DNA of 64,000 bases, taken from Mobula hypostoma. Its lineage: Eukaryota. Of the stretch, positions 1 to 34,940 are shown piece by piece (position 1 is the first letter of the stretch; every line of letters begins with the position of its first letter). The DNA is taken from NCBI RefSeq assembly GCF_963921235.1, contig NC_086097.1, forward strand, positions 129,892,001 through 129,956,000, written 5' to 3'. The translations under genes were made by a program, and so were the position numbers. The notes below the pieces were generated by a model. It saw only the letters and a list, made by a program, of their open reading frames with translations. It searched no databases and was not told the origin of the DNA.

Positions 1-89
1 GAGTCAGCAGCTTTAAATTCCAGGGCATTAACAAGAGCAGAACTGGGCCCAGCACGCAGTTGCAATCACAAGGAAAGCAGGTCACCAAA

Positions 90-790
90 CACTCTAACAA
101 ATTCTATGTTTGTACTTTTGAAAGTATCCTGACTGGTTGTATCATGGTGAGGTATGGCAATTTGAATGCAAAGGAATGTAAGAAGCTGCGGAGAATAATG
201 AGCTGTGCTCAATACATCTTGGAGTTAACCCTCCCTGCCATCGGTAATATCTAAATGAGGCAAAAGTATGGATATGTACAGACCATAATGGAAACGTATG
301 TAAAGGATGGAGAGTTATTGAATGGTTTATTGTATATAATTTTATTTTTGAATAAAGTATATTTTGAAATAAAAAAGTATCTAAATGAGGTACTGCCACA
401 AGAAAGCAAAATATGCCATCAATGATCCTGGCATTCTGGGCAATGCCATCTTTTCACAGCTACCATTAAGCAGTGGCTATAGAAGCCTTAAGTTCCACAC
501 CAGCAGGTTCAAAAACAGCTCCCTGCCTTCAAGTATTCAGTAGTTCTTGAACTCACTGTCAAAAACCCTAATCATAACAGCATTATTAGCAACATTATGA
601 CGACTGATCACCTTGCACAAAAATGAACTGTTTCTTTTTGTTTTAATTGAGTTCTTTCTTGTAAAATTTATGATTTTCTTATGAATACAGCTTATATGAT
701 GGAATACACCTGTGATACTGCTGCAAATAAATTTTTAATTGCACCTGTGCGTACATGTAGTTATGCCAATGACAATAAACTTGACTTTTT
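90..790 (+). mobile_element. Rex1/Babar-type LINE 3' fragment, decayed
   Basis: Translation 'FYVCTFESILTGCIMVRYGN...' resembles the Rex RT C-terminus; ends GACAATAAAC like the other Rex tails in the window. Confidence 0.7.
261..377 (+). mobile_element. Short 5'-truncated poly(A)-ended retroelement tail (L1/Tx1-like)
   Basis: AATAAA and A-rich end; flanked by a perfect 13-bp TSD TATCTAAATGAGG (248-260, 378-390). Confidence 0.65.
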
Positions 791-888
791 TTTAAAACAG
801 AAGCTATAGAATGCAATAGCAGGGAGGGCAGTAATTAGCTGGCACTGTGTTTGATACAAACTCCACTGACCAGCATCCTTCAACAGGT

Positions 889-1073
889 AGGAGCAGATGG
901 GCAGTGATTTGGCCACCACTGCCGGCCCACCAACTGGAGAGTGTCATGGTTAAGGGTCGAAAACACTCTGTGAAGGTTGGGAGCCACCCGATGACATTTG
1001 CTCCTGGCTGAAGGCTACAGTTACTTTATAAGGTATCTGGAGAATGCACCCTAACAGGTGTATGTAACAAGTA
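889..1073 (+). repeat. Upstream copy of the ~185-bp terminal direct repeat
   Basis: Matches 5744-5927 with about 9 differences counted by eye. Confidence 0.97.
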
Positions 1074-2571
1074 ATCTCTGTTTTGTACCAGTGGCTTCCA
1101 GGAAAGACTGGATTGCAACCGAGGAAGGTCAGTGACGCTGGAGAGACAGCTGACCTCCAGGAAAGACTGACACGGGCTCACAAGGCTAGCAACCTTGTGG
1201 GCAGCACTCGCAAGAGGGAACCACTCAAGCTACGATTGAACACAAAGAGCAATACCCTCAGAGTCTCCTGAGAGGGAGGGGAGAGGATGAGAGACGCAAC
1301 GGGACGATATACCGGCAATGGCCAGGACAGGAAACACAACTACAAGGAAGCTAAAGCAAACAACACTGACTGGAGAGGAATTCACAGTAAGGTGTCATTG
1401 CAGGAAAGTCTGCAAAAACATCAGAGGGCTCAAAAGATATACCAGAGCAGGTCTAGATGTGGATCAATGGTGACCCAAGTGCAGCACATGGACTTGGTGT
1501 CCGGTGAGACGAAGGAGAATTCCAGCCAGGAAGCATCCCACAGAGCTGAAGATCTCTCCGCACTCGAGTAGCCTCAGCACCGAACAACAGACCAAGTGAG
1601 TTCCCCTTTGGCTACCCCAATCCATTCATCAAGGAAAGGCAGGATCAAATGGCCTAGATCGTCAGACAACGTCACCTGGATGCAACCAAATAGGAGGGAA
1701 AGGGAGGTTCGTCGCTTGAGAGGTGAATTACAGACGCTCAACAAGAGGTTTAAAACCAGCTCACTGACCAAAAGAGAAGGTTTCAAGGACGTAACCAGTA
1801 TGCTGCGGGAAAAGCTGTGCAAACTCTGGAGGGCGGAACATCTACGACAGCAAAGAAGGAAGAAAGAGAAAAGGCGAGCGCAGTTTGTGAGAGATCCATT
1901 CAGTTTCACCAGGACTCTTCTCGGCCAACAAAAATCTGTTATACTATCCAGTTCGAAGCCAGAGGGAGAGGAGTTCCTGTGGGAGGCACACAGTGACCCA
2001 TGGAGGGGTCAGGGACTAGGAACTAATGGGGCTGTGCGTAGACCGGAAAAACCATCAAATGAGCTGAATGTGAAGGAGCCTACGTGGCAGGAAATCCAGG
2101 ACATCATCTGGAAAGCTAAAGCATCAGCTGCCGCAGGCCCAAGTGGTCTACCTTATAAGGTGTATAAGAAATGCCCAAAACTTCTTCGGAAGCTGTGGAA
2201 GGTCATGAGAAAGATCTGGGCCATAGGTACTATTCCATCAAGTTGGAAATTGGCAGAGGGATGCTTTATTCCAAAGGAAGAGGATTCTTCCACATTTACC
2301 CAGTTTTGGACAATTTCTCTCCTAGATGTGGAATGTAAGATTTTCTTTTCTGTGCTCACTAGAAGGCTGACTTCTTACATGACGCAGAACCGCCTTGTCA
2401 ACACATCTATCCAGAAAGGCGGTATTCCAGGCTTTTTGGGGTGTCTGGAACACACCTCAATGATTAGCCATTTGATCCGTGAGGCCAAGCAGAGAAAAGG
2501 CGACCTAACAGTTGTCTGGTTAGACCTCGCGAGCGCCTACGGGTCTATTCCTCATGACTGTTGGAGTGTAT

Positions 2572-2755
2572 GGGGTGTCAGGTAGGGGTAGCACCTCTGG
2601 TGGGGGAACACATTGTGTCCTTTTCAGGGCGCTTTGTCACCTTTGGTCCCCACCTGGCACTCAGCTCTCACCTGTGGCTCCCTGTAGGTGTTTGCATGCG
2701 ACAGCAGCCACACCCTGGGCAACGGCTTTGACAAGCCGGCTAAACCAAGTGAAGG
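2572..2755 (+). ncRNA. HDV-like self-cleaving ribozyme (putative)
   Basis: P1 GGGGUGU 2572-2578/ACACCCU 2710-2716 with G-U at position 1; P3 GGC/GCC; P1.1 CC 2680-2681/GG 2717-2718; P4 CGGCUU/AAGCCG; J4/2 GCUAA with C2740; imperfect P2 2665-2674/2746-2755. Confidence 0.7.
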
Positions 2756-2912
2756 TAGCCGACTGGTCTCAAACTCTCAGTGAGATAGGGAGTTGTCTAT
2801 CCCAGCATGTGAAGACAGACTCCGGCGGATTGAGCGGACGAGACCAATGGTAGGTCCAACGGTCAAGAAGGCAGTCTCCGCAAGCGCCGTGGAACACGTA
2901 GAGCACGACAAG

Positions 2913-3457
2913 ACCATATAACCATATAACAATTACAGCACGGAAACAGGCCATCTCGGCCCTTCTAGTCTGTGCTGAACTCTTACTCTCACCTAGTCCC
3001 ACCGACCTGCACTCAGCCCATAACCCTCCATTCCTTTCCTGTCCATATATCTATCCAAATTAACTTTAAACGACAACATCGAACCTGCCTCAACCACTTC
3101 TGCTGGAAGCTTGTTCCACACAGCTACCACTCTCTGAGTAAAGTTGTTCCCCCTCATGTTACCCCTAAACTTTTGCCCTTTAACTCTCAACTCATGTCCT
3201 CTTGTTTGAATCTCCCCCATTCTCAATAGAAAAAGCCTATCCACGTCAACTCTATCAATCTCCCTCATAATTTTAAACACCCCTATCAAGTCCCCCTCAA
3301 CCTTCTACGCTCCAAAGAATAAAGACCTAACTTGTTCAACCTTTTTCTGTAACTTAGGAGATGAAACCCAGGCAACATTTTAGTAAATCTCCTCTGTACT
3401 CTCTCAATTTTATTGACATCTTTCCTATAATTCGGTGACCAGAACTGTACACAATAC
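2913..3457 (-). mobile_element. CR1 LINE 3' fragment
   Basis: YCVQFWSPNYRKDVNKIERVQRRFTKMLPG...LERRRLRG and TRGHELRV motifs; (TATATGGT)n tail. Confidence 0.9.
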
Positions 3458-3630
3458 ACAAAGGCACAGAAGATGTCCTGGTCATCCACTACGCCTAGTC
3501 TCATCTCCAGCCGTCTCGACTCTTGTCTTGCCACTGGATCCAGATGGGAATTGGGAAGAGAGAGTGAGGCTGACACCGTGCAACTCTCCCTCACTTAAAT
3601 CCAAATCAAGCGTTAGTCTCGGCATCATCA

Positions 3631-3771
3631 GCCGGCTGGTGGCGCAGTGTCAGCAGCGCTGGACTCCAGGAGCGAAGGTTCCCGAGTTCGAATCCAGTCG
3701 AGCTGCTCCCGGGCACACTTTCCATTCTTGCCAAGGTTGAGTGTCGAGCTAGCAACTCGGCATCGTAAAAA
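3631..3771 (+). mobile_element. tRNA-derived SINE (lacks the 3' tail)
   Basis: A box TGGCGCAGTG and B box GAGTTCGAATCC; same head as 34637-34940. Confidence 0.8.
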
Positions 3772-5740
3772 GTACTAATGGCGTCGAGGTCTTCATCAAT
3801 GATGATGGACGAACCTTAATTCCACATGACCTCATCCTGTAAGGACTCGACCACTACTACATCCCAGTGGCTATTCGAGACATGATCACCAGCTACCTAG
3901 GAGGATTCAAACTCAGATTTACATCAGCCCATTTCACAACTAGTTGGCAGGACCTCCAGAAGGGGATTCCAACAGGGTGCGCCATCTCTCCCACCCTATT
4001 TATTATGGGAATGAACCTCCTATTATCAGCAGCAGAAGATGTAACCCGCGGCCCGACGTTGGAGTCGGGCATTGTTCAGCCGACTCTACGAGGGTTCATG
4101 GACGACATCACTATAACAACTCTGGCACATGTCCAAGCAAGATGGGTATTGGAATCCCTGGATGATGTAGCCACTTGGGCGAGGGTGTCCTTCAAGGCCA
4201 AGAAGTCCAGGTGTATGGTGATCAGAAAGGGCAAAGTTACTAGCAAGTTTAGCCTCCAAGTTCAGGGTGAGGTCATCCCTTCCATCAAAGATAACCCGAT
4301 AAAATGCTTGGGGAAGTGGTTAAATGTGTAATTGACAGACGGGGCCAATGTCACCAATACTGTGAAGCAGACAGACGAATGGCTGGAGAAGATCGACAAA
4401 TCCAGACTTCCCAGTAAATTCAAGACCTGACTGTACCAATACAGCATTCTGCCCAGGCTTCTCTGGCTCTTCACACTTTATGAGTTCCCCATGACTGCCG
4501 TACAGGGCATCGAGAGGAAAACCAACAAACACTTGCGGAGATGGTGGGGAGTTCCCCCAAGCTTCTCTTTAGCGGGTGTCTATATTCGAACTGGCAACTG
4601 CAGCTTCCCCTGTCATCTGTTGTGGAGGAATTCAAGGTGGCAAAATGCAGAGCCTTATTACACTTGAGAGATTCCAATGACGTCTTGGTAAAGCAAGCAG
4701 GTGTTACAACCAGATCTGGGTGCAAGTGGGCAGCCAACGCAGCTGTGGAGCAGGCAGTGTGTTCTCTGAAGCTGTGAGATATCATCGGCAACTCCTGCGT
4801 CGAGTGGCAAGGCCTCGGCTCAGTTCACTTCCAGCAGTGGGGAAACGCAAGCATAAGGAACAGGTGAGACATGGTACAGGCAGAAGTACGGATCCGTGAG
4901 GAAGAGAAGTGGATGTCAAAGGCAGTGGAACAAGGGTCCCAGCGTGCCTTGACAAAATGGGATCTGCCCAAGCGCAAGATCTCATAGGCAGAGTTATGGA
5001 GACTGGAGCCCTTCCGTATTTCCTTCCTCTTGCGATCAGTGTATGATACCCTGCCTTCACCATTGCATCTGTACTCATGGGGGATGAGAGCGGACCCGAA
5101 CTGAAAGCTCTGTGGTCAAAAGTGGACACTGGCTCATATACTGTCCAGGTGTAAAACAGCTGTAACTCAAGGACGGTATGGGTGGCTCCTTGATCAGGTG
5201 CTTCTGGCTGTTGCTGACACACTAGAGCGGGAGAGATGCAAGAAGAGGGCGGCTGGCACAGATTTGAGGAAGACCATCACCTTCATCAAGGAGGGAGCCA
5301 GGCTTTTCGTAACCAAACAATCTGCTGCTAACAGCCAGGTCCTGGGAGATGAGGGTCGATGTGGGAAGGAGGCTGCAGTTCCCGGATGTGGTGCACACAA
5401 CCCTACGCCCGGACATTGTACTGTGGTCAACTGAAGACAGGAAAATAATTCTGGTTGAGCTGACTGTGCCATGGGAGGAGGGATGGGAAGAGGCCCACGA
5501 CAGAAAGGCCTTGAAGTACCAGCCCTTACTGCAGGAGTGTAACGAGAAGGGATGGCAGGCATGGTTGTTCCCTGTGGAGATCGGCTGCAGAGGTTCCCCA
5601 GTCAAATCAGCATGGCGGTTGTTGTCAGATCTGGGCCTGGACGAAAGGAGCAAAAAAAGACAAGCAGATCGTAGGATGGGGGAAGAGGCAGAACGGGCCT
5701 CTTGTTGGATTTGGAGTAGGCGAGAGGAGGGAAGCTGGAA

Positions 5741-5862
5741 GCCAGGAGCAGATGGGCAGTGATTTGGCCACCACTGCCGGCCCACCAACTGGAGAGTGTC
5801 GTGGTTAAGGGTCGAAACACTCTGTGAAGGTTGGGAACCACCTGATGACATCTGCTCCTGGC
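5741..5862 (+). ncRNA. Putative non-circularly permuted hammerhead-like ribozyme with kink-turn
   Basis: GAGUGU-C (5794-5800) pairs with GAA-ACACUC (5814-5822); GUGGUU (5801-5806) pairs with AACCAC (5836-5841), directly followed by CUGAUGA (5842-5848); 14-bp closing helix 5741-5754/5849-5862. Confidence 0.7.
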
Positions 5863-5927
5863 TGAAGGCTACGATTACCTTATAAGGTAACTGGAGAATG
5901 CACCCTAACAGGTGTATGTAACAAGTA
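5744..5927 (+). repeat. Downstream copy of the terminal direct repeat (ORF end plus 3' UTR)
   Basis: Matches 889-1073. Confidence 0.97.
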
Positions 5928-6292
5928 TCAAGACAAGAGTAGTGCCTGACAGACCGATGAGGCGACAGGCTGCAGCTAAAGACAATAAAACACAGGAAAT
6001 CAGCACATCAAATCTGCTTCACCCTTCCATCATGGCTGATTTATTATCCCTCTCAACCCCACTCTCCTGCTTTTTTCCCCATAACCCTTGATGCCCTGCG
6101 TAATCAAGAAACTATCAATCTCGGCTTTAAATATACCAAATGGCTTGGCCTCCACAACCGTCTCTGGAAATGAATTTCACAGATTCACCACCCTCTGGCT
6201 AAAGAAATTCCTCCTCATCTCTGTATTAAATGGACGTCTCTCAATGCTGAGGGTGTGCCCTCTAATCCTAGACTTCTCCATTCTAGGAAACA

Positions 6293-7652
6293 TCAGAATC
6301 AGGTTTATTAAGTAAAAATTGTGCAAAAATAGAAAGTTTATATATATATATATATCTAAAAGTGAGGCAGTGCTCACGGGTTCAATGTCCATTTAGGAAT
6401 CAGATGGCAGAGATGAAGAAGCTGTTCCTGAATCACTGAGTGTGTGCCTTCAGGCTTCTGTACCTCCTACCTGATGGCAACCAGATTTGGGAACAGCTTC
6501 TTTCCAACTGTGATAAAACTGCTGAACGGATCCTGACCCAGATCTGGGCCTTACCCTCCAAATATCTGGACCTGCCTCTCAGTTTTTTTGTACTACCTTA
6601 CTTCCCATTTTTCTATTTTCTATTTATGATTTATAATTTAAATTTTAATATTTACTATCGATTTGTAATCCAGGGAGCGGGAAGCGCAGAATCAAATATC
6701 GCTGTGATGGTTGTACGTTCTAGTATCAATTGTTTGGTGACAATAAAGTATAAACTAACAGTGAGAAAGTGGCATGCCGTGGGTGCTGGGGGTCCTTAAT
6801 AATGGACGCTACCTTTCTGAGACACTGCTCCTTGAAGATGTCCTGGGTACTTTGTAGGCTAGTACCCAAGATGGAGCAGACTAAATTTACAACCTTCTGC
6901 AGCTTCTTTTGGTCCTGTGTAGTAGCCCCTCCACCCCATACCAGACGGTGACGCAGCCTGTCAGAATGCTCTCCACAGTTTTTGAGTGGTTTTGTTGACA
7001 TACCAAATCTCTTCAAACTCCTAATTAAGTATAGACACCGTCTAGCCTTCTTTATAGTTGCATCGATATGTTGGGGCCAGATTAGGTTCTCAGAGACCTT
7101 GACACCCAGGAACTTAAAACTGCTCACTCTCTCCACTTTTAATCCCTCTATGAGGATTGGCATGTGTTTCTTCATCTTACCCTTCCTGAAGTCCACAATC
7201 AGTTGTTCTGTCTTACTGACGTTAAGTGCAAGATTGTTCCTGCGACACCACTCCACTAGTTGGCATATCTCGTTCCCGTACACCCTCTCGTCTCCATCTG
7301 AGATTCTACCAACAGTGGTTGTATCATCAGCAAATTTATAGATGATATTGGAGCTATGCCTAGCCACACAGTCAAGGGTATACAGAGTAGAGCTGTGGGC
7401 TAAGCACACACCCCTGAGGTGCACCAGTGTTGATTGTCAGTGAGGAGGAAATATTATCACCAATCCTCAAAGACTGTGGTCTTCCACGTAGGAAGTTGAG
7501 GATCCAATTGCAGAGGGAGGTACAGTGGCCCAGGTTCTGTAACTTCTCAATCAGGATTGTGGGAATGATGATGTTAAATGCTGAGCTATAGTTGATGAAC
7601 AGCATCCTGACATAGGTGTTTGTGTTGTCCAGGTGGTCTAAAGCTGTGTGAA
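6293..7652 (-). mobile_element. Rex1/Babar LINE RT plus 3' end
   Basis: [38 protein letters not shown]; contains a second, + strand Rex-type tail at ~6480-6756. Confidence 0.85.
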
Positions 7653-8409
7653 GAGGCCATCCTCTCCAAATCCACTCAATCTTGTTCTTTCAATATTCAA
7701 TAGGTTTCAATGAGATCACCCCTCATTCTTCTAAACTCCAGTGAGCCATAAAACACTTGTCATATGATAATCCTTTCATTCCTGGAATCATTCTTGTGAA
7801 CCTCCTCTGGACCCTCTCCAATGCCAGCGCATCTTTTCTTAAATAAGCGACCCAAAACTGCTCACAAAATTCCATGCAGTCTGTCCAAACCCTTACACGG
7901 ACTAAGCATTACATCCTTGCACTTATATTCTGTATCTCTTGAAATGAATGCTAACATTGCAGTTGCTTTCCTTACCACCGCCTCAACCTGCAAATTATTC
8001 TTTAGGGAATCCTGCAAAGGACTCCTAAGTCCTTTTGCACCTCTGATTTTTGAACTTTCTCTCCTGTTTAGAAATAATCTATGCCTTTATTCCTTCTACC
8101 AAAGTGCATGACCATACACTTCCCTACACTATATTCCATCGGCTACTTTGGCCATTCTCCCAATCTGTCAAAGTCCTTCTTCAGACTTCCTGGTTCCTCA
8201 ACACTACCTGCCCCTCCACATATCTTTGCACTAAGCCATCAATTCCATCATTCAATCTGTTGAAAAGCAGCGGACCCAATAACAACCCCTGTGGAACACC
8301 ACTAGTCACTGGCAGCCAACCAGGAAAGGGCCCTTCCTCATTCACACTCTTTGCCTCCTGCCAGTCAGCCAATCCTCCATCCATGCTAGCAGCTTTCTTG
8401 TAATATTAC

Positions 8410-9223
8410 TGTAACAGGGTCCTGAAATACTCCTATGAACTGTGCTCGATTACCCCTATGAACTGTGCTTTTGAAAAAACAGAGAGAGAGTTATTTAACA
8501 CCAACATCTTGTTTTTAAGAGACAGAGAGGCGAAGACTGCTCACAGTATATTTACATTTCTACAAGGACACCGCCTTCTTGGAAATTCTTGCAGACAGAG
8601 AAGTGAGGAGCTGTTTGAGTGATAGCTGGTATTCAGCACGGGGAGATAAATAGAAGGTCAGATGATAGATCTCAGACATATGGTTTTGGACACCTAATGA
8701 GCTTTGTTGTGCCCACAGAAAAAGTGGGTTTTTGGAGGATCGATCAGTGGCTCTTGCAGTGTGAACAGGGCGACCGGTGCGGAGTTACTTGTGCGTCCCA
8801 CTCTTGCCTGGGTTGATAGTTCCACCACAGAAGAATGATCCCCTTTGTTGTGGTCACAGTTGGTGACTTTTAAAGGATTTCGGAGGACAACAGGAAGATC
8901 GACGGCGTCAGCTCACCTGAAGACTCAAATCTCTCCCCCCTTTCTCTCCATCACTACTCAACTCAATACCACAAACTGAACTGAACTTTACTCATCATCG
9001 TAAGACTATCTATTTATCCCTAGACTTGAAGAAGCTTGATTTTCATATATTTCCACACTTACTGATATACTTACTTATATCGTTGCTAATCTGTTTGATT
9101 TATCTGCATTTATATTACTGTATTGTGTAGTTAATAATAAACACCATTAGTTAATAACAATCCTGGACTCCAAGGTGTTTTCCATTTCTGCTGGTTCTTT
9201 AACCCGTCACAGGGTACGTGACA
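8410..9223 (+). mobile_element. Solo LTR
   Basis: TGTAAC...GTGACA termini, AATAAA ~85 bp before the end, TTAC/CTAC flanks; cleanly interrupts the CR1. Confidence 0.7.
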
Positions 9224-9350
9224 CTACGGACTCTTATCTTGTTAAGTTGGCTCACGTGTGACATCATGTCAAAGGCCTTCAGAACATCCACTGGCTTTCC
9301 TTTGTCTATCCTGCTTATTATTTCCTCAAAGAATTCCAACAGATTTATCT

Positions 9351-10278
9351 GTTGTACAACCTGCCTCAGAAGCTGCTGATTCAATTCTATTCAGGAATAA
9401 TCCAGTCTGTTCCCTGTTCGTCCATCACTGTCTGGTTTGGATCTGCTACCAAACAAGACAAGAGTAGACTCCAAAGTACTGTCAGGGCTGCGGAAAGGAT
9501 TATTGGTGTGAAGCTGCCCTCGATCCAGGACTTATATGCCTCTAGAGTCAGAAAGCGAGCAAGCAGCATCATTGTAGACCCATCACACCCCGGACATCAC
9601 CTGTTCCAACTCCTTCCTTCTGGTAGGCGCTTTAGTTCACTGTATGCCAGGACAAATAGAACATAGAACATAGAATAGTACAGCACATTACAGGCCCTTC
9701 GGCCCACAATGTTGTGCCGACCATCAAACCCTGCCTCCCATATAACCCCCCACCTTAAATTCCTCCATATACCTGTCCAGTAGTCTCTTAAATTTCACAA
9801 GTGTATCTGCCTCCACCACTGACTCAGGCAGTGCATTCCACGTACCAACCACTCTCTGAGTAAAAAACCTTCCTCTAATATCCCCCTTGAACTTCCCACC
9901 CCTTACCTTAAAGCCATGTCCTCTTGTATTGACCAGTGGTGCCCTGGGGAAGAGGCGCAGGCTATCCACTCTATCTATTCCTCTTATTATCTTGTACACC
10001 TCTATCATGTCTTCTCTCATCCTCCTTCTCTCCAAAGAGGTACAAGAACAGTTTCTTTCCGTATGCCATCAGTCTTATGAACACTTGAATTTTAGTCTAT
10101 TATAAACCAAGTCCACCTGTACATACACAGGTATACCTCATTGTATATAGTTCACGATTATTTACGCTATTGTTTTGTTTGCTTTTTGATTCTGTACAGC
10201 GAGAGCTCAGGGAAACCGGCATCAAATTCCCTATATGTGTCCACATACTTGGCGATAATAAAGGATTCTGATTCTGAT
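9351..10278 (+). mobile_element. Rex1/Babar 3' fragment containing a minus-strand CR1 tail (9657-10038)
   Basis: LPQKLLIQFYSGIIQSV...HPGHHLFQLLPSGRR; (ATTCTG)n tail; the insert translates ERRRMREDMIEVYKI...TRGHGFKV. Confidence 0.85.
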
Positions 10279-34636: not shown

Positions 34637-34940
34637 TTTTTTTTTGGCATGTGCATGCATGTGCGTCTGCATGTGTGCATCCGTTTGTGTGCAATGTTGG
34701 CGGGATGATGTCTTTTTCATGCCTCTACAAGGCGCGGAGCAAGAGAGAGACTGTGTTGCCGCCACTCCTCACACAGACCTTTTGCAGTATTTTCCCCTTT
34801 ATTTTATGAGGTCGAGTTGCGATCTTGACACTCAGCCCGGCATGGATGGAAAGCGTACTCGGGAGCGGCTCCGACTGGATTCAAACCCTGGAACCTTCGT
34901 TCCAGAATCCGGTGCTGATGGCATTGCGCCACCAGCCGGC
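34637..34940 (-). mobile_element. Full-length tRNA-derived SINE
   Basis: A/B boxes on the minus strand, A-tail, 15-bp TSD AC(A/G)TCACTAAATTTC (34622-34636, 34942-34956). Confidence 0.88.

Follow-up and report, generated by a model that had tools for sequence, protein, structure and literature searches.

The locus considered here lies in a stretch of 64,000 nucleotides of the Mobula hypostoma genome (contig NC_086097.1, positions 129,892,001 to 129,956,000 of the forward strand), referred to below as the window. It raises the question of which element nucleotides 2563-2756 of the window belong to, whether they can fold as an HDV-like ribozyme, and where such a ribozyme would cut. A preliminary description had proposed an HDV-like ribozyme with a large J1/2 domain and an expanded L3, cleaving before G2572. 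Taking all evidence together, we consider it quite probable that 2563-2756 is the 5' end of a non-coding, high-copy retroposon of ~565 nt (family A), related to full-length RTE-type LINEs, and that its RNA takes the predicted HDV-like fold and is cut before G2563.

The element was delimited by means of its target-site duplication (TSD; Table 1). The insertion interrupts an older reverse transcriptase (RT) element, whose RT frame (1572-2582) breaks and whose RVT_1 similarity resumes at 3843. By its TSD the insertion begins at 2559, so that G2572 lies 13 nt from its 5' edge, as previously described. When nucleotides 2555-2800 were used to query the own genome (3.48 Gb), 3,653 first-look candidates were obtained, of which 40 were scored; these best 40 comprise, besides the window's own copy, 39 copies that are 91-93% identical. 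The length of family A, its lack of an ORF, its (CAA)n tail and its TSDs were established on 30 fetched loci. Being short, ORF-less, flanked by TSDs, ended by a microsatellite tail and present in many copies, family A resembles bipartite non-autonomous RTE elements in these respects.

Several pieces of this region have a history of their own. The repeat nested in the element is presumably a CR1/L2-type 3' end. The SINE-like piece displays A/B-box-like motifs, but no tRNA was found in 3631-3770 by ARAGORN. Of the first 30 family-A loci, 4 carry it, each at the same 5'/3' joint, which suggests a composite subfamily of family A, and a free copy of it lies at 34802-34940 of the window on the minus strand. 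At the 3' joint of family A (~3620-3630 / 3775-3790), the end of the 5' part is complementary to the start of the tail, and a hairpin spans this joint in the copies without the SINE piece. The host RT element carries terminal direct repeats of ~185 bp (889-1073 and 5744-5927, 95% identical); from its RT and CCHC-like 3' part, we take it to resemble R2/Hero/NeSL-type elements. A hammerhead candidate in its terminal repeat was dropped after folding.

Table 1. Features of the family-A insertion and of its predicted ribozyme (window coordinates).
Feature	Position	Strand	Remarks
Left TSD	2547-2558	+	12 nt; right copy 3819-3830, one mismatch
Four extra bases, TSD to element start	2559-2562	+	likely untemplated or from slippage
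Repeat unit 1, predicted P1 5' strand	2563-2569	+	GGAGTGT in window copy; predicted cut 5' of G2563
Linker P1 to P1.2, 3 nt	2570-2572	+	from folding; G2572 is the first nucleotide of the preliminary description
J1/2 peripheral domain (P1.2), ~90 nt	2573-2662	+	basal helix 2573-2582 / 2653-2662, formed with repeat unit 2
P2 5' strand	2664-2675	+	pairs with 2744-2756, one bulged C; 12/12 invariant in four family majorities
P3 5' strand	2676-2678	+	pairs with 2707-2709
Canonical L3 core	2679-2686	+	U2679, U20 equivalent; C2680/C2681 in P1.1; G2684, G25 equivalent
Extra L3 hairpin, 19 nt	2687-2705	+	stem 5-6 bp, loop 7 nt
P3 3' strand, P1 3' strand (2710-2716), P1.1 GG (2717-2718)	2707-2718	+	from sequence and alignment
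P4 hairpin, 6 bp	2723-2738	+	three pairs with compensatory changes between families
J4/2	2739-2743	+	C2740 at catalytic C75 position; C in 57/57 other family-A copies
P2 3' strand	2744-2756	+	G>A at 2748 and 2753 in window copy
Hairpin directly 3' of ribozyme	2759-2780	+	predicted in majorities of families A, B and D; none in C
Remainder of RTE-like 5' UTR part, first piece	2781-2914	+	from sequence comparison
Nested insertion of another repeat, 546 nt	2915-3460	.	other copies without it
Element body, second piece	3461-3630	+	~76% like 5' UTR of RTE family E
SINE-like piece at 5'/3' joint	3631-3770	+	also in L002, L020 and L027
Element 3' tail	3775-3818	+	82% over 28 nt to RTE family E 3' end, E=0.41, weak

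In the predicted fold, the helices occur in the double-pseudoknot order P1, P2, P3, P1.1, P4, and the 3' strands of P3 and P1 adjoin each other, with GG after them. P2, with one bulged C, reaches 12-13 bp and is directly continuous with P3, and J4/2 keeps its usual spacing. All pairings named in the preliminary description can be found in the sequence (2572-2578 with 2710-2716, P3 2676-2678 with 2707-2709, P4 2724-2728 with 2733-2737, the J1/2 helix, and P1.1 between C2680/C2681 and G2718/G2717), together with C2740 and a 28-nt L3. The HDV-like features given in the available text of PMC3386971 and PMC6326823 include, in L3, a U20 and a G25 that lie five positions from each other, and C21/C22 for P1.1. 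Among the 57 other family-A copies, the equivalents of U20, G25, C75 and A78 are present in 57 and P1.1 in 54. C2740-U-A-A2743, that is the catalytic-position C and three bases ending in A before P2, is likewise found in 57/57; the base after the catalytic C is U in family A as opposed to R in the descriptor printed in the available part of PMC6326823. P1 formed with unit 1 has 6 of 7 pairs in the window copy and 7/7 in 27 of the 57 others. At its base G2563 pairs with U2716; the G-U first pair that had been described for P1 does exist in this copy, but as a copy-level decay, position 2716 being C in 48/57 others.

The window copy differs from the family majority at 16 positions of 2563-2756. 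Its lesions comprise G>A at 2565 (an A.C mismatch in P1), C>G at 2688, which breaks one pair of the L3 hairpin, and the two G>A changes of P2, which bear out the partial decay of P2 noticed earlier. The complete set of core features was found in 43 of the 57 other family-A copies; with 9 of 11 P2 pairs, the window copy falls outside this set. Judging from these changes, its own ribozyme is probably slow or dead.

Chance origin of the fold was assessed with a descriptor written after the sequence had been seen. The intact copy L014 passes it, with 0 of 2000 dinucleotide shuffles matching at a P2 of at least 9, whereas the window copy passes only at a P2 of at least 2 (reached by 23 of 2000 shuffles) and fails at a P2 of at least 6. 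The shuffles reject chance for the family, and do so weakly for the window copy alone. No match by E-value was returned by Rfam in 1-10000 of the window, nor on the better-preserved copies L014, L015, L133, L213 and L202. On the strength of the modelling, we predict that family A RNA folds as an HDV-like double pseudoknot; the earlier proposal of an RTE-type element whose 5' end has an HDV-like fold with a large structured J1/2 is supported to that extent. In our proposal this RNA would cleave just before G2563, with P1 made of 2563-2569 and 2710-2716, a 3-nt linker, a P1.2 based on the second GGGGTGT unit and a long P2.

Relatives of family A were reached by two routes. A protein search with an RTE-type RT, followed by 20 region fetches, led to L120, which has an RT frame (RVT_1) and a 5' end 75% identical to family A over 302 nt; its family (B) consists of full-length APE+RT elements with copies of ~4 kb. 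Families C and D were reached via variant letters in sequencing contigs (1,105 pattern matches, 0 for the control; 30 loci aligned), and one family-D copy continues into an RTE-like ORF. The same HDV-like core is found in families A, B, C and D, whose majorities were derived from 58, 30, 21 and 9 copies, respectively. A fifth family, E (27 loci), is 70-77% identical to family A over positions 232-510 of A (~280 nt). Its copies are ~96% alike with a very GC-rich 5' end, and L111 (2264-5404) and L061 (2260-5313, minus strand) are RTE-type with open frames of 1,047 and 1,018 aa (APE + RT).

The autonomous partner of family A was looked for among these relatives. Family E (L111-like) was not established as the parent: it has the downstream UTR in common with family A, but 0 descriptor matches were obtained at its GC-rich 5' end, with 900 nt upstream searched. 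The 3' end of family A matches L111/L112 weakly (82% over 28 nt, E=0.41), and the tail of family B differs from that of family A. The exact autonomous parent was not found among the own-genome RTE-type loci compared. DUF6451-bearing RTE loci were rejected as partner: in 50 of them, neither a similarity to family A (best E=0.38) nor a strict descriptor match was seen. From the single APE+RT ORF, retrieval with a DUF6451-bearing element and the kind of tail that RTE elements have, we infer that the partner would belong to RTE. Among the 120 metagenome pattern-scan loci listed, no homologue of the element was detected by BLAST. One metagenome locus unrelated to family A, L223, lies in GC-rich DNA; having a 10-bp P2 and a short L3, it satisfies the HDV-like descriptor, a match that may be due to chance.

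The predicted cut depends on the register of P1. GGGGTGT occurs twice, 9 nt apart, as unit 1 at 2563 and unit 2 at 2572. To avoid selecting on the 5' end, we searched the genome using the element's 3' half and obtained 29 new family-A copies. Unit 2 is reached by 23 of them; 20 keep unit 1, 1 keeps part of it and 2 (L178 and L181) start at unit 2. TSDs could be called in 17 of the 23: 13 end within -10 to -6 of G2572, 3 further upstream and 1 at unit 2. Since unit 1 is common to most copies and, in families A, C and D, departs from unit 2 beyond base 7, it must be templated by the RNA. If G2572 were the only cut site, unit 1 would be lost; G2572 as the main site, as first proposed, is not supported by these copies.

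When the four family majorities are folded freely, unit 2 enters the basal helix of J1/2 (P1.2) in each of them. Under constrained folding, unit 1 gave the lower energy in 45 of the 46 family-A copies able to form it, by -9.1 kcal/mol on average, pseudoknots being outside the energy model; for the window copy the values are -52.4 for unit 1 and -47.3 kcal/mol for unit 2, i.e. 5.1 better. The modelled cut is likely to fall before G2563, 9 nt upstream of the site first proposed, and the P1 of the preliminary description is probably misplaced. The first G of unit 1 is also where one RNA-seq contig of another organism (G) starts, behind 17 loose letters, which we take to be an Illumina adapter end. 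This contig is a hint at a G2563-type 5' end, coming from one record of one run that could be a PCR duplicate or DNA. X20 and X18 have 2 contigs each, those of X20 running upstream into unlike sequence, and X15 is probably DNA. In the raw DNA runs X21-X23, the matching reads numbered 0, 0 and 1.

The alternative that survives best, possible though on the unlikely side, is that two registers work, P1 forming with either unit and the RNA being cut before G2563 or G2572, the second site serving copies without unit 1. Unit 2 does pair with the P1 3' strand at 7/7 in 50 of 52 family-A copies, and unit 1 carries subfamily mismatches in 17 of 52, G6>A in 12/52 and G3>A in 5/52, with the P1 3' strand unchanged; yet a P1 made with unit 2 sacrifices 6 bp of P1.2 and ~8-9 kcal/mol, and has no spacer towards P1.2. 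On an alignment of 38 copies from the four families, the P1 3' strand pairs with unit 2 in 88.4% versus 75.0% for unit 1, because many B and C copies are without unit 1. L178 and L181 fit a cut at unit 2, but such starts were seen in only 2 of 23 family-A copies. Family B keeps unit 1 in only 9 of 25 copies. When 20 of its 30 copies were fetched, chosen so as to be enriched for those lacking unit 1, the TSDs were found to abut unit 2 in 7, unit 1 in 4, and to lie just upstream of unit 2 in 2, the remaining 7 having no usable TSD. The two units of family B are identical, however, and slippage or microhomology collapse at integration produces equally bimodal junctions with no need of a second cut. 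Either a second register or slippage between these units would explain the B junctions. For R2, the available text of PMC3774820 reports 5' junctions made variable by microhomology and untemplated bases where the cut lies at the element end.

Two other traits were observed at the 5' junctions. L009 and L182 carry a partial third 9-nt unit between TSD and element, as RT slippage would give. Position -10 from G2572 is T in 14 of 23 family-A copies, with no G; this T is part of the TSD in most of the copies for which a TSD was called, and looks like a target or microhomology preference.

A more far-reaching reading, which we hold to be decidedly doubtful, is that these RTE elements bear an active subtype of HDV-like ribozyme, not described before, whose L3 forms a third peripheral domain and whose tandem 9-nt P1 strand acts as a backup of the 5' end. 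The cut would occur at either unit and RT slippage would rebuild a lost unit, a view prompted by the partial third units of L009 and L182 and by the identical units and bimodal junctions of family B, so that slightly truncated copies would still self-process.

The predicted L3 was then compared with that of known ribozymes, in which it usually measures 7-8 nt. The window copy departs from this size with its 28 nt (2679-2706), made of U-C-C-N-N-G-U-A, a 5-6-bp hairpin and one base before the P3 3' strand. A genome-wide search with flanking motifs gave 2,842 long versus 4 short L3, the 4 being mutually unlike; by these counts a long L3 is the family state. The L3 insertion initially proposed is thus a variant fixed in the family, but as a core plus hairpin rather than a loose 28-nt loop. 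The first four pairs of the hairpin are formed in 96.5% of the alignment cells, with one-sided changes only, and family D has a different, shorter insert. The hairpin lies just on the 3' side of the G25 equivalent. The base found there (after G28) in the antigenomic HDV ribozyme is bulged out or flexible and one of the least conserved, as stated in the available part of PMC3386971. Since the HDV base bulges out there, the hairpin would by analogy likely point away from the active site and project into solvent, leaving the active site unaltered. As a separate observation, its loop contains a 6-nt palindrome (2694-2699) in families A and B, missing from the family-D majority, which could allow kissing dimers.

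Next, conservation was compared between the core and the periphery. Across the four families, invariant positions amount to 12/12 in the P2 5' strand, 17/18 in J4/2 with the P2 3' strand and 12/13 in the P3 3' strand, P1 3' strand and GG, and are fewer in the J1/2 interior (25/50) and in J1/4 with P4 (9/20). The covariation alignment contained 38 copies (the window copy, 10/57 A, 10/30 B, 9/21 C and 8/9 D) picked for closeness to their own family majority. In this alignment 90.6% of the cells are paired. Cells changed on both sides number 62 against 28.8 +/- 4.4 in shuffles, a count that is inflated by the related families; the 11 pairs with a double change are not above the shuffles, 342 of 500 reaching 11. 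The double changes are located in P4 (3/6 pairs) and in the inner J1/2 helix (4/5), whereas no informative one was found in P1, P1.1, P2, P3 or the L3 hairpin of these 38 copies, the core being nearly invariant. The core helices are uninformative for covariation because they barely vary. A covariation test, as initially suggested, consequently speaks for P4 and the inner J1/2 helix and is silent on P1 and the other core helices: at the sequence level, the periphery is supported by covariation, whereas the support for the core is that of conservation and spacing.

A core that is invariant rather than covarying would also suit an inherited relic, or a scaffold for protein binding or translation, whose L3 hairpin blocks the active site and whose 5' ends are set by an internal promoter or by RT stopping at a stable structure; we consider this quite improbable. 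The catalytic C, U20, G25, P1.1 and the P3-P1-GG spacing are kept in four families while J1/2 and P4 drift, although in families A and B the L3 core finds other partners when P3-L3-P3 is folded freely. Positions 23-24 of L3 are AA in families C and D, versus the C fixed there by the design descriptor in the available part of PMC6326823, and family E has the downstream UTR in common with no descriptor match at its 5' end; the 5' ends nevertheless fall on the G1 predicted from P1, and no short-L3 subfamily was amplified (4 unlike matches versus 2,842). It is very improbable that cleavage occurs at G2572 alone and that the 13 nt upstream are flank or were added without a template, for although unit 2 pairs at 7/7 and unit 1 only at 6/7 in the window copy, 9 of these 13 nt are common to most copies and templated, and the cut would remove them.

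The predicted HDV-like ribozyme has known counterparts. In the available parts of the corresponding papers, HDV-like ribozymes are described at the 5' ends of the non-LTR retrotransposons R2, R4, RTE, L1Tc/Ingi and baggins (PMC3774820, PMC6765202, PMC4035085), those of RTE cut at the element 5' end (PMC3774820, citing Ruminski 2011), and the 5' ends of RTE, R2 and L1Tc are processed (PMC3774820, PMC6765202). The predicted ribozyme resembles them, as they are presented there, in its 5'-end position, P1-P2-P3-P1.1-P4 order, U20/G25, catalytic C, large J1/2 and tolerance of mismatches at the top of P1. It differs from them by the conserved 17-19-nt hairpin of L3 (26-28 nt in total) and by the tandem P1 5' strand. 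drz-Agam-2-1, a ribozyme from a mosquito, combines a short linker, P1.2 and a 12-bp P2 and is fast, and has no activity when the P1-P2 spacer is absent, according to the available text of PMC4908430. Family A likewise has a short linker, a stable P1.2 helix and a P2 extended to ~12 bp; its P1.2 base, unlike that of drz-Agam-2-1, duplicates the P1 strand, and an L3 hairpin is not mentioned for drz-Agam-2-1 in that text. In the literature searched, we met no description of an L3 hairpin in HDV-like ribozymes or of a tandem P1 strand; the figures and supplements of Ruminski 2011, Webb 2009, and Webb and Luptak 2011, which lie outside this survey, may show an L3-hairpin variant.

As an element, family A is close to the bipartite non-autonomous RTE elements RTESINE, WALLSI3 and RTE-N2_Lch (PMC5786205) and to the R2 SIDEs (PMC3414825), whose ribozymes have been shown to cleave. 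As far as the available portions of these papers describe them, ribozyme-headed internally deleted elements exist, and family A has in common with them a LINE 5' UTR joined to a short, putatively LINE-derived 3' end, no ORF, TSDs and a 5' ribozyme, here a predicted one, but it belongs to another host lineage and another family. RTE 5' processing and bipartite parasites are already established, and the L3 hairpin and tandem P1 strand are variant features.

With the predicted cut, element RNA would be released out of host read-through transcripts, and an RTE protein would recognise the 3' tail and copy family A RNA in trans. The corrected cut site bears on assays: a construct starting at G2572 would be in the wrong register. 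A search with L3 set to 7-8 nt would overlook vertebrate copies by the thousand, and Rfam missed all those tested. If the ribozyme cleaves, L3 would be a third site, after J1/2 and P4, that accepts an added helix, in this case beside the active site, which would be useful for ribozyme engineering.
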